Shown here: one piece after another, positions 25,401 through 52,400 of the stretch
Position numbering within the stretch: position 1 is the first letter of the stretch
Layout of the letters: each line of letters opens with the position of its first letter
Assembly: GCF_003334765.1 (NCBI RefSeq)
Contig: NZ_QOWT01000002.1
DNA: 64,000 nucleotides
Direction: 5' to 3' (one strand)
Source of the DNA: Escherichia coli
Lineage (GTDB): Bacteria; Pseudomonadota; Gammaproteobacteria; Enterobacterales; Enterobacteriaceae
Program-made: the position numbers

Positions 25401-28400
25401 CTACACCGTAAAATTTTGCAAACATGTTCATAAATAATAATGTATTACTAACATTTATTAATTGAATTATAATAAAAATCATATCATCAGAACAAAAAAT
25501 TTTATACCCCCCCTTTTTCTTAAGCCTTATTTGTTTAAAAATAACACACTTCTTCATTATTAATAATATTGCATAAACCCCTCTGTAGTTAGCAGTTAAA
25601 ATGCAAACAATGTAAATACTCACTTTGTAGTAAATTAAAATGCCCACGCCTGCAATGAATACGAGTAAAAATATTATTTCAAGTAGTACAAAATTGAGCG
25701 TTTTACCTGTAGCATCATAATATGAAGCAACCACTGGATAATATATATTTATTAACGATACAGCAATAAAAAAACATATTTTACCATATAACGTATCAAA
25801 CCCAACTACATAAAGCGTAGCCAATAATAAACAAAATATTATTAATAAGAATGGATACGTTATTTTCCTCACTGAATATAATAAATAATCAAGCAAATCA
25901 TTTTTTTCTAAATTTGATATCAGATTACGGAAGCTTGCAGTGATGCCGTTTTGTAAAACAGAAATAACGATTGCGTATGTTAGTAAATAAGAATAAATTC
26001 CAAAATCATACTCTGAATAGAATCGTATTATTATTGCAGGAATAAGCAAATTTAATAAAACAACACCCATCTTTAATAAAGATGAACTAAAAAGCAACTT
26101 TATCATAATAACTCACATTTACTTGTTAAGATGATATTGACTTTTTATAATTTAATAAGTCTAATATGAAGCCTGTATATTTTTTAGTTGCGGCCACATC
26201 TCCTCTAGATTCAACGTTTAACCGGACTACGGGTTCCGTATTAGAAGAACGTAAGTTAAAGCGCCATCCATTAAAAGTCATACTTATACCATCTGTACGA
26301 TCGATCTCAATTGCCTTATTTGCATAATAACTTTCAACCCGTGCGATAGCACATAATGGATCTTCCAACGTGCTATTAATTTCCCCACTTGCTGGAAAAG
26401 CTGCCATCCGGTCACGCACAAGTTCGCCCAGCGTTTTTCCTTTCAGACACACCAGTTCGGCTACCAGCAGCCACGGGATCATGCCGCTGTCGCAGTAAGC
26501 GAAATCACGGAAGTAATGGTGGGCGCTCATTTCGCCACCGTAGATGGCGTCTTCCTTGCGCATACGTTCTTTAATAAAGGCGTGTCCGGTTTTCGACATC
26601 ACCGGAGTGCCGCCTGCGGCAGTCACCACATCAACGGTGTTCCAGGAGAGACGTGGATCGTGGATGATCTTCGCGCCGGGATTTTTTTCGAGGAATGCTT
26701 CTGCCAGCAGGCCGACAATGTAGTAGCCCTCAATAAACTGCCCTTTTTCGTCAAACAGGAAACAGCGGTCAAAATCGCCATCAAAAGCAATGCCCATATC
26801 CGCGCCGTGTTTGATGACCGCATTGCGGGTGTCGTCGCGGCATTCCGGCAGCAGCGGGTTAGGAATACCGTTGGGGAAATTTCCGTCCGGCGTGTTGTGC
26901 ACTTTGATCAATTCCACGGGTGCGCCGAGGGCTTTAAAGCGGGCTTCGATGGCGTCAACTACCGGACCCGCTGCGCCGTTCCCGGAGTTGATCACCAGCT
27001 TGAGCGGCGTGAGGTTTTTGACGTTGATATAACCGAACAGGTGATCAACGTATGCATCACGCAGGTTGATTTGCTGATAGCGACCGCGTTTGGTTTCATC
27101 AACGGGAGGAAAGTCGTTGGCTTCTGCCAGGCGCTGGACATCGCGCAGTCCGGTATCGCCGCTGATCGGGCGAGCCCCTTCGCGCACCAGCTTCATGCCG
27201 TTGTAATCCATCGGATTATGGCTGGCGGTAACTTCAATGCCGCCATCCACGCCGAGATGGAACGTGGCGAAATAGATCTCTTCGGTGCCGGACATACCAA
27301 TATCCAGCACATCGACGCCCGCATCCTGTAAACCTTTCGCCAGCGCCAGTTTTAAGGTTTCGCTGGTGAGGCGGACATCACCGCCTAACACAATGGTTTT
27401 CGGTTTGAGAAATTCGCCATAAGCGCGACCAATGCGCCAGGCAATATCTTCATTCAATTCTTCGCCTAATTTCCCGCGAATATCGTAGGCTTTAAAGCAG
27501 GTTAATTTTTTCATTTATTAGTCATCTATTTTGTAACGTTCTTTTTGACGAACAATATCATCCTCACCTAAATAATCTCCTGAACTAACTTCAATAAGAT
27601 TGAGAGGAATTATACCTGGATTTTCAAGGCTATAAGTAGCACCCAGAGGAATATAAACGGATTCATTAGCAGTAACTAAGAAAGTTTTGTTATTTAACGT
27701 TACTTTTGCTGTACCTGAAAGGACAATCCAATGCTCTGAACGATGATGATGCATACGTAAGGATAGCCCTTCCCCTGGTTTAACGACAATCTTTTTGACC
27801 TTATATCGATCTCCCTGTTCTATAGCATCAAACTTTCCCCAAGGCCGAAACTCCTCGCGATGTGATAGATATTCAGAACGTTCTTGCATTTTAAGCATTT
27901 GAACAATTTTCTTAACATCCTGAACTTCGGATTTTTTTGAAACTAGAATTGCATCTTTCGTCTGAACAATAACAATATCTTCCACACCTACAGCGGCTAC
28001 TAAGGCTGACTCCGAATGAATATAATTATTTTTTGTATTATAGGTCAGGATATCACCTTTGCAAACGTCCCCTGTAGGGGTTTTATCACTAACGTCCCAC
28101 AATGATTGCCAAGATCCAACATCGTTCCAACCAATATCAACGGGATAGACTATACAACGCTTTGTTTTTTCCATTACTGCAAAATCAATTGATTCCGATG
28201 GACAATTTTGAAAAACATCTTTCGAAAGTCGTATAAAATCAAGATCATGGTAGGACGAAGAAATTGTTTTTTCACATATATCGTATATATCAGGTCTGTA
28301 TTTTTTTAACTCCTCTAAATATACTGATGCTTTGAACATAAACATCCCACTATTCCAGAGATATTTACCTGAGGAGATATACTCTTCAGCCCTTGAGCGA

Positions 28401-49400: not shown

Positions 49401-52400
49401 TCTGCGGAATTTCCTGCACCAGACCATACAGTTCAGAGGTGGAAGCCTGATAGAAACGGGTTTTCTTTTCCAGACCGAGGAAGCGGATCGCCTCGAGCAG
49501 GCGCAGCGTACCCATCGCGTCGACGTCAGCGGTATATTCCGGTGACTCAAAAGAAACCGCAACGTGGCTCATTGCGCCCAGGTTGTACACTTCATCCGGC
49601 TGCACTTCACGCAAAATACGCGTCAGGTTGGAGGTATCACTCAGGTCGCCATAATGCAGATGGAATTTCGGGTTACAGGTATGCGGATCCTGATAAATAT
49701 GATCCACGCGCTCGGTGTTGAATGACGATGCGCGACGCTTAATACCATGCACCTCGTAACCTTTTTCCAGCAGAAACTCTGCCAGGTAAGAACCGTCTTG
49801 TCCGGTTACACCGGTGATGAGAGCGACTTTTGACATGTCTTATTCCTCTGTATTTTTTGAATTTATTCAGTTTCAACGCGTTCGCGTATCACCACTGCGG
49901 GATTCCCCCGGCAAACCACATTTGCCGGAAGCGTTTTAAAAACACTGCTTCGTGCACCCACGACGGTGCCGTCGCCAATCGTGACGCCAGGGGCAACAAA
50001 AACATCGGTTGCCAGCCAGCATTTCTCGCCAATCACAATAGGCGTAGCATTAATGGTGAAATGTTGACTTGCATGGTCGTGGCTACCGGTGCATAAATAA
50101 CTTTTTTGCGATATCACCGAATGTGCGCCAATGGTTATTTCACCGAGGGTATATAAATTGACGTCATCGCCGACCCACGCGTAATCACCTAAGGTTAATT
50201 TCCACGGATAGGTAATTTTTACTGACGGACGAATAACTACGTTTTTTCCTATTTTTGCGCCGAATAAACGTAATAAAAATGCCCGCCAGCGATACAATAC
50301 TTGTGGCGACCAGGCAAATATTGTTGCCTGTACTGCCCACCATAATTGCACTTTAATAGCGTTGCCGCCCCGGAACCCTTTCGGCACCGAGAAACCGCTT
50401 AAATCTTGCATTGGTTCTCCTTATATTCAGACTTTGTTATATAAGGCTTTCGTCTTTGAGGTAGTACGTTGGCGTAAATGCCAGGATAATTCAGCCCAAA
50501 AGCCAGGTACATGTAATATTTGTCGTTGGACTTTTTTCGCGTCAGCACACAATTCCATATTATTGGTGGTAGATACCCCACCCATGGAAAATTCAGACAC
50601 CAGGCCATTGAGTTTTTTAAATGCATAACCGGCTTTATACATTTTGGCTGCCAGCGCGTAGTCGGAAGAAACTTTATACTCCAGGTCATAACGCCATTTT
50701 TTCAAGCCGGATACAGGGAAAAATATCGCCTGATGACTGGCGGGCAGGCTGTGATAAATATACCAGCCCGGTTTGGCGCTACGTTTAATTTTATGCCCGT
50801 CGCCAAAATCCAGCAGCGCATCGCCGGTGATCATCATGTTATCTTTTTGCATTTTTAACTTACGGACAAAATTTGCGGCATCCTGATGAAAAATATCGCC
50901 CGAATTGAGAAACAACGCGAACTTGCCTTGTGCCATCGTAATGCCTTTGTTCATGGCGTCGTAGATACCGTTATCTGGCTCGCTGACAAAGCGTAGGTTA
51001 TAGATACCATTGAGATTTTCCAGATACTCACGGGTGCCGTCATTGGAACCGCCATCGACAACAATCCATTCGAAGCTGATATCTTCCGCCAGCGCCAGAT
51101 GCGCCAGCGAGGCATGTGTTTTGACTATCCCTTCGAGGTTACGAAACGCGACAGTGATTATGCTAAGCAACATGTTCTTATTCTTACCTCGTAATATTTA
51201 ACGCTTTTCGCAAAATAAACGGACAGACGATTAAAAATGCATATTCCGGGCTAAATATCGAACCGGTAAAAAACAGCGACACCGGAGTAAAAAGATATAA
51301 TTGCACGCGAAAATTGCGGTTATCACCAAAAGCGTTGATCATCATTTTTATCACTTTCCCCATGTACCACAGCGATAAAAACACTGCGAACCAGGAAAAA
51401 TAAATAATCAGCAGATACAAACCATTGTCTATGGTTTTTCCGACATCCGCACCGTTAAATATTCCGAATGATGCGACATATTCATAAAGTGAGCCAAATC
51501 TGACTACACCGTCAATATGGGTCAAAGAATAACCGACCATTACCAGCGGACCGACAATACGATAATACGATGACGATCCTTCCGTACCTAAATCGCCCAG
51601 ACGGGTGGAAATATAAGGAAACGCGATTACCACACCAACCAGGAATACAGCCAGAGAAATCAATGCTAACGGCAACTTTTTCTTAATCGCCTCTTTATTC
51701 AGATATTGAAATGCCCACTCCAGCAAATAAAACAGGATAAAGGTCATAACCCCTGAAAACGATCCGGATAATATTATCCCTGCGAGAATCATAGCATCGG
51801 TTTTAGGCGTTTTGATACCAAACTGTTTGATGCTGAGCCAAATTGAGATTAATGCCAGAGCGAAAAATGCCGGTTCGAAATAAAGTGCTGTCGTGCGCTT
51901 GCCGCCGAATTTAATGAAATTCAGCACATAGCTGTTGCTGTAAATCAGATATTTCGAAATCGACTCCATAATACTGCTGCCACCGGTGAGGATAATTTGC
52001 GCCATCTCCACTGCCGCCAGCGCCACCACCAGCCCGACCACCAGATAAAAGAAACGTAATATCTTGCGATGGTTGTGTGGCGAAATCGTTTTAAAGCGAA
52101 TACTCCACACCATGCCAATAATGATCACAATATAGACAAACAGCATGGTTGAAGTGACGTATTTACTGGCATCCAACGACTGACCAAACAGATAGTTGAA
52201 CGCCGTGAGTCCCGCACCAATCCCTAAGGCAATCATCAATTTTTTAACGCTGATGCGTTCTAAAAACAGCAGTAACAAGACAGGTAAAAAAGTGACGATA
52301 GTGATGGGGAAACTTTCACCAAGCTGGGCGATTTTGACGTTAACCAGCAGGTAGATCAGCGGCAGCAGCAGGTAGCTACAGATTCTGATAGAAGTTGACA

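Follow-up and report, generated by a model that had tools for sequence, protein, structure and literature searches.

Kilobase-long direct repeats such as rrn operons, copies of insertion sequences (IS) and rhs elements give rise to deletions and tandem duplications by homologous exchange. The O-antigen cluster of the Escherichia coli O14 type strain has been reported as lost through recombination between manB of the colanic-acid cluster and manB of the O-antigen cluster (Jensen & Reeves 2004, cited in PMC7685785 and PMC4379981). In O157, manB has been described as replaced by cpsG via gene conversion (Samuel et al. 2004, discussed in Iguchi et al. 2011, PMC3158064), and the first seven genes of the O86, O90 and O127 clusters, including gmd-fcl-gmm-manC-manB, are given as more than 96% identical (Feng et al. 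2005, summarised in PMC7685785). The subject of the present analysis is a stretch of 64,000 nucleotides of E. coli contig NZ_QOWT01000002.1 (assembly GCF_003334765.1), here called the window, which corresponds to the his, O-antigen (serogroup O86) and colanic-acid region of the chromosome. The O-antigen and colanic-acid clusters in the window share two long direct repeats, R1 and R2. It is very probable that such paralogous repeats recombine with each other, leaving one hybrid copy and deleting the interval between them.

Comparison of the window with itself by BLAST pairs positions 29016–31551 with 47301–49836 (R1; 2,536 bp, 95.03% identity, 126 mismatches, ungapped, E = 0) and positions 26190–27514 with 43181–44504 (R2; 1,325 bp, 91.5% identity, one gap). 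Both repeats are direct, with start-to-start spacings of 18,285 bp for R1 and 16,990 bp for R2, and the matches are too long and too similar to have arisen by chance. No inverted repeats of at least 100 bp are present in the window. The initial annotation had noticed two long direct repeats of about 2.5 and 1.1 kb that bracket 17–18 kb at 26400–49836. The self-comparison confirms the coordinates, the orientation and the length of R1, and the shorter length given for R2 fits its high-identity core at about 26400–27514, which is approximately 97% identical, whereas the last ~270 bp of the O86 manB are 30–50% divergent. R1 corresponds to gmd-fcl-gmm and R2 to manB/cpsG, the guanosine diphosphate (GDP)-L-fucose pathway genes of the two clusters; both clusters encode this pathway because both polysaccharides contain L-fucose.

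The junctions predicted for four unequal exchanges, the deletion and the duplication through each repeat, were built and searched for in 5,426 complete E. coli genomes. The query for the R1 deletion consisted of the O86 manC flank, R1, and the wcaF-wcaE flank. The junction expected from R1 x R1 exchange, in which wcaE-wcaF-gmd-fcl-gmm is fused to the O-antigen manC, is present, contiguous and at full length, in four of the genomes: one O86 isolate, one re-sequenced stock of strain E2348/69 (O127:H6), and two O128 strains. Each of the four records contains a single copy of R1. A single query caught several serogroups because of the high identity of the first seven genes across O86, O90 and O127. 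The survey of related genomes that had been proposed as a check on the deletion thus returned the exact junction from natural and stock genomes. The genes expected to disappear, which are part of the O-antigen cluster together with galF, gne, wcaM, wcaL, wcaK, wzxC and wcaJ, are indeed lost in the R1-deletion genomes, as are cpsG, cpsB and wcaI. In window coordinates, the interval lost by R1 x R1 exchange spans 31552–47300 on the minus strand, from the GT4 glycosyltransferase gene through wcaI.

The O86 isolate 3702594 (NZ_CM182088.1, assembly GCF_059428025.1) has the gene order wza...wcaF-gmd-fcl-gmm-manC-manB-wzx-wbnI-wzy...gnd, and the genes from the GT4 gene through wcaI are missing. Over 13.4 kb, the colanic side of this isolate shows 100.0% identity to that of ten genomes, several of which are intact O86 genomes, and the intact O86 sister VTB96933v was used as the parent proxy for mapping the crossover. 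Of the 94 sites that distinguish the two parental copies, the first 17, which extend to nucleotide 333 of gmd, have the colanic allele in the hybrid, and from nucleotide 384 onwards 76 of 77 alleles are those of the O86 copy; none of the 94 sites holds an allele foreign to both parents. The crossover interval is equivalent to window positions 31168–31219 (minus strand). The copies of the window itself, or those of the O86 genome H1, were rejected as parents: they leave a noisy tail, and the isolate has a different colanic haplotype.

The E2348/69 stock (NZ_CP059840.2, assembly GCF_014117345.2) has the same fused architecture as 3702594, and the original E2348/69 reference, NC_011601.1, is intact. 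The hybrid of the stock has 22 colanic alleles up to nucleotide 639 of gmd, followed by 42 alleles of the O127 copy from nucleotide 750, contains no alleles foreign to the parental copies, and has flanks that match the predicted parents. Its crossover interval is equivalent to 30802–30913 of the window (minus strand). The deleted interval is found at 100.0% identity in three other O127:H6 assemblies. The idea that E2348/69 naturally lacks the interval was discarded, as it conflicts with the known O127 serotype and, among all O127 genomes compared, the reference is intact and only the one stock is deleted.

The same fusion is present in the O128 strains E41 (assembly GCF_016889485.1), isolated from a pig in China, and OkiPb01675 (assembly GCF_055393375.1), from bovine feces in Japan. 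The view that the O128 cluster starts with gmd was ruled out by the intact O128 genome LHM10-1, in which, as in the O86 cluster, galE and a GT4 gene are located upstream of gmd; therefore, the O128 deletions also remove O-antigen genes. An IS3-family element lies between galF and galE, the first O128 gene, in LHM10-1 (L009 20226–21388), at the position of the O-antigen promoter and JUMPstart. The crossover positions differ among all four deletion genomes, so the deletions are independent events that occurred at least four times, each via R1.

It could instead be supposed that horizontal import of O-antigen DNA produced the junctions, if an incoming gmd paired with the colanic gmd of the recipient and the replacement removed the interval. 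Transfer of O-antigen clusters from one lineage to another does occur, with breakpoints that lie within the colanic cluster, and the colanic side of E41 mismatches that of the closest intact O128 genome in a noisy pattern. The haplotype of the window is nearly the same as that of genome H1 up to about 36000, near wcaM, beyond which the two diverge by 3–6% (about 36000–40187); this break probably marks where the DNA segment ends with which the O86 cluster entered different lineages. However, the flanks of the O86 isolate and of the E2348/69 stock are essentially identical to those of intact sisters that carry both copies, so import is unnecessary and unlikely for these two genomes, and it is an improbable explanation of the junctions overall.

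Under the favored explanation, a homologous crossover between direct copies 17–18 kb apart would leave one hybrid copy and remove everything between them. The crossover could occur within one chromosome or between sister chromosomes, and a single exchange accounts for every junction. In the O86 and E2348/69 cases the crossovers lie within short runs of identity, 50–110 bp long. Runs of this length might also be used by RecA-independent replication slippage or template switching, and the sequences do not distinguish between the two routes. RecA-independent deletion, however, declines sharply as repeats lie further apart and works efficiently only on short, closely spaced ones, whereas the repeats considered here are kilobases long and 18 kb apart, and slippage is therefore a very unlikely origin of the deletions. 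We infer that they depend on RecA because of general knowledge of recombination between kilobase repeats at such a distance.

Several observations weigh against recombination between the repeats as a general source of deletions. The claim that exchange between direct copies deletes the interval holds for R1 and did not extend to R2, the deletion junction of which is present in none of the 5,426 complete genomes. Exchange between sister chromosomes should also yield duplications, and the duplication junctions of R1 and of R2 were each found in none of these genomes; amplification by unequal exchange, which the initial annotation had put forward beside deletion, is hypothetical. The missing duplications are weak evidence, because tandem duplications are unstable and their absence from finished assemblies is a weak test. 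The R1 deletion is rare. It is present in one of about 80 O86 genomes, one of 11 O127/O90 genomes, and two of 23 O128 genomes, which amounts to four of about 117 genomes with the module (~3%), and the remaining 113 keep the interval. Regardless of serogroup, at most eight of 4,723 genomes have a colanic-type gmd-fcl-gmm without adjacent wcaI-cpsB. The allele switches of the two O128 hybrids, near nucleotide 950 of gmd in E41 and near the end of gmm in OkiPb01675, are approximate, as they were located against LHM10-1 and no closely matching parent is available.

The chief limitation is that the evidence for the four junctions comes from deposited assemblies. The similar gmd-fcl-gmm copies could have been joined falsely and the 15.7 kb between them dropped; such a join through the repeat would likewise give a single allele switch, and the chromosome NZ_CM182088.1 was built from a shotgun project. 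Nevertheless, the four assemblies come from four laboratories, are all at complete-genome level, and each has a different switch point. A second copy of R1 is not left over in any of the records, the interval is absent from the whole record of the E2348/69 stock, and the chromosome of the stock is 21,091 bp shorter than that of the reference. Moreover, a repeat collapse does not usually take 15.7 kb of unique sequence with it. An assembly artefact is thus a highly improbable cause of the four junctions.

The anatomy of the repeats indicates how the substrate for recombination has been maintained. The O-antigen copy of R1 (29016–31551, minus strand; GC content 54%) contains gmd (30430–31551), fcl (29462–30427) and most of gmm (28959–29462), and the colanic-acid copy (47301–49836, minus strand) contains gmd (48715–49836), fcl (47747–48712) and gmm (47265–47747), with the end of the repeat at the gmd start codon. 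In R2, the O86 manB copy (26190–27514, minus strand; coding sequence 26126–27514) is chimeric, with a cpsG-like 5' part of ~1.1 kb (54% GC) and a divergent 3' part of ~270 bp (36% GC), and its counterpart in the colanic-acid cpsG (43181–44504, minus strand; coding sequence 43134–44504) ends at the start codon. The O86 copies score 590.8 bits (Gmd), 552.8 bits (Fcl), 312.4 bits (Gmm) and 1016 bits (phosphomannomutase CpsG) against NCBIfam models, all above the curated cut-offs, and the assignment of ManC is also above its cut-off. The proteins encoded by the two copies of R1 are 96.5% (Gmd), 99.1% (Fcl) and 88.1% (Gmm) identical. The repeats have a GC content of 54%, compared to 29–36% in the surrounding O-antigen cluster.

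Homology between the copies sets in exactly at the start codons of gmd (31551/49836) and manB (27514/44504) and ends inside coding sequence. The O86 manC (27518–28966), which lies between the O-antigen copies of R2 and R1 and provided the serogroup-specific flank in the junction survey, is outside the repeats; its colanic paralogue is cpsB (44606–46042), and the two are 58% identical in amino acids and ~67% in nucleotides. Two additional weak self-matches, 27549–27862 with 44634–44947 (67%) and 28680–28786 with 45756–45862 (75%), correspond to this diverged pair. The similarity within the repeats is mosaic: R1 has identical runs of 289 and 214 bp beside a patch at 30616–30815 with 40 mismatches in 200 bp, and R2 contains a fully identical run of 419 bp. 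Because the homology is delimited by start codons, skips manC and is mosaic, R1 and R2 represent paralogous genes that repeated gene conversion has kept alike, not a duplicated block or a mobile element. Their length, similarity and direct orientation might by themselves suggest that they bound a recent segmental duplication, or else a mobile or composite element. Such an origin is hardly credible, since beyond the exact onset of homology and its end within coding sequence, the intervening manC is diverged from cpsB, wcaI is single-copy, neither a transposase nor inverted repeats are present, and the repeats encode housekeeping sugar-nucleotide enzymes. Both readings were rejected on the anatomy of the repeats.

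Gene conversion has left a trace specific to the lineage of the window. The window and genome H1 are almost identical from 2600 to about 36000, except for 12 clustered differences at 26600–26807, and these fall inside the 419-bp tract (26463–26881, minus strand) in which the manB of the window is identical to its own cpsG. The differences at 26600–26807, which set the window apart from other O86 genomes, are a lineage-specific gene-conversion patch copied from cpsG into manB. In E2348/69, the O127 copy of gmd-fcl-gmm is 97.5% identical to the colanic copy of the same genome, with an identical run of 1,513 bp, and 94.6–95.9% identical to the colanic copies of other strains, so that the pair within the genome is the closer one. 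The divergent gmd patch at 30616–30815 is common to the O86 and O127 O-antigen copies, and the two O128 deletion hybrids are of the colanic type there. The patch probably survives from an older O-antigen gmd of greater divergence and has escaped erasure by conversion.

The gene order at the locus was established from open reading frames (ORFs) of the window and the RefSeq annotation of one near-identical O86 genome. The O86 O-antigen cluster is a low-GC segment at 21100–34000 that is near-identical in 79 of the 5,426 complete genomes. All genes on the O-antigen side are on the minus strand, in the order gnd, the O86 genes (fucosyltransferase, glycosyltransferase, wzy, wbnI, wzx), manB, manC, gmm, fcl, gmd, GT4 glycosyltransferase, galE, galF and GlcNAc-PP-Und epimerase. 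The colanic-acid side continues on the same strand with wcaM, wcaL, wcaK, wzxC, wcaJ, cpsG, cpsB, wcaI, gmm, fcl, gmd and wcaF through to wza. One set of GDP-L-fucose genes is therefore located between galF and gnd and the other inside wza...wcaM, and the O-antigen copy of R2 is adjoined by the O86-specific wzx and wzy. The interval between the copies of R1 contains, all on the minus strand, the GT4 glycosyltransferase gene (wbnH-type, 31578–32594), galE/gne (32613–33632), the O-antigen JUMPstart/ops element (33670–33708), galF (33942–34835), the GlcNAc-PP-Und 4-epimerase gene (35078–36073), wcaM, wcaL, wcaK, wzxC and wcaJ (36231–43079), cpsG, cpsB and the single-copy wcaI (46045–47268). A second JUMPstart/ops element is positioned upstream of wza (59030–59068, minus strand).

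R1 exchange would remove genes for the initiation, flipping and completion of colanic acid (wcaJ, wzxC, wcaI, wcaK, wcaL and wcaM), and also cpsG, cpsB, galF, both N-acetylgalactosamine (GalNAc)-related epimerases, and the GT4 transferase, which is a second-sugar enzyme. It would further remove the promoter-proximal JUMPstart/ops element of the O-antigen cluster. The surviving O-antigen genes would then be fused behind the wza operon, and the element at 59030–59068 would be the only one left upstream of them. Because wcaJ, wzxC, the GT4 gene, both GalNAc-related epimerases and the JUMPstart are lost, the R1 deletion is predicted from its gene content to cause a rough, colanic-acid-negative phenotype in one step. 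A more far-reaching possibility, which is offered tentatively and is itself rather unlikely, is that exchange through gmd-fcl-gmm constitutes a recurrent, selectable switch in O86, O90, O127 and O128, which removes O-antigen and colanic acid together under pressure from, for example, phages, serum or laboratory passage, and brings the surviving wzx, wzy and glycosyltransferase genes under control of the Rcs-controlled wza promoter, in a hybrid locus that could evolve a new polysaccharide. Under such conditions the R1 deletion might confer a selective advantage.

Further features were observed at the locus and in the genomes surveyed. A poly-G tract at 23747–23756 on the minus strand divides the O86 wzy (about 22946–24273) into two ORFs. 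The tract is G10 in the window, and an intact ORF of ~443 amino acids results only from G8 or G11. Among the 60 of 80 O86 genomes listed for the tract, most have G9, which is out of frame, and G8, G10 and G11 also occur; JE86-ST02 and JE86-ST05, isolates of one series, differ from each other. RefSeq marks wzy as frameshifted in all three O86 genomes whose annotation was inspected. Either slipped-strand phase variation of the O-antigen polymerase or sequencing error in the homopolymer could account for these differences. Directly upstream of the cpsG start codon, and just outside the colanic copy of R2, an Rfam 'algC RNA' motif is located at 44509–44558 on the minus strand (77.3 bits; gathering score 33.8). 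An equivalent is absent at the O86 manB because manB follows manC by 3 bp. For approximately 700 of the 5,426 complete genomes, megablast gave no match to colanic-type gmd-fcl-gmm, and approximately 630 cover less than 80% of the stretch from wcaF to asmA; in a sizeable minority of these genomes, much of the colanic-acid cluster therefore seems to be missing. The genome of strain IH5 (NZ_CP168949.1) matches gmd-fcl-gmm in four places, one of which (5035391–5036490) is a 1.1-kb fcl-gmm fragment that is 97% identical to the copies in the window and adjoins fliD, a site remote from the usual locus.

Serotyping, sensitivity to phages, resistance to serum and the behaviour of biofilms are all shaped by O-antigen and colanic acid, and both could be lost in one event. 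Because wzx and wzy remain after R1 exchange, in silico wzx/wzy serotyping would still call O86, O127 or O128 for a strain that is in all probability rough. The deposited genome of an E2348/69 stock without 18 kb present in the reference is relevant to laboratories that use this stock for studies of the envelope of enteropathogenic E. coli (EPEC). If the exchange does act as a selectable switch, some circulating E2348/69 stocks would be unrecognised rough, colanic-negative derivatives. Clean pairs of parent and derivative also provide a natural measure of where crossovers are placed in DNA that is 95–97% identical.

The deletions described here resemble most closely the event in the O14 type strain, which concerned the same locus and direct paralogues of the GDP-mannose pathway, lost the genes between the copies, and left the strain O-rough. 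As in O14, direct repeats flank the lost segment, the hybrids of 3702594 and of the E2348/69 stock have a single allele switch, and the intervening genes are absent, with the flanks otherwise unchanged relative to an intact relative. However, O14 used manB/cpsG, an exchange of the R2 type, whereas the present four deletions all used gmd-fcl-gmm, in O86, O127 and O128. The gene conversion described for O157 is a non-reciprocal exchange between the same paralogues and accounts for an identity of more than 95% between manB and cpsG that the neighboring genes do not share; the patch at 26600–26807 is a fresh example. Conversion leaves both clusters intact, whereas the crossover outcome deletes the interval. 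The relationship among the O86, O90 and O127 clusters described by Feng et al. (2005) concerns replacement of the downstream serogroup-specific genes, not upstream loss. Unlike rrn operons, IS copies and rhs elements, the repeats at this locus are functional paralogues with 95–97% identity, and their recombination removes two surface polysaccharides at once. The literature searched, the coverage of which is incomplete, contains no description of gmd-fcl-gmm as a deletion substrate, of the recurrence in O86, O127 and O128, or of the deleted E2348/69 stock. The process is already known from O14; what is new is the substrate and the instances.

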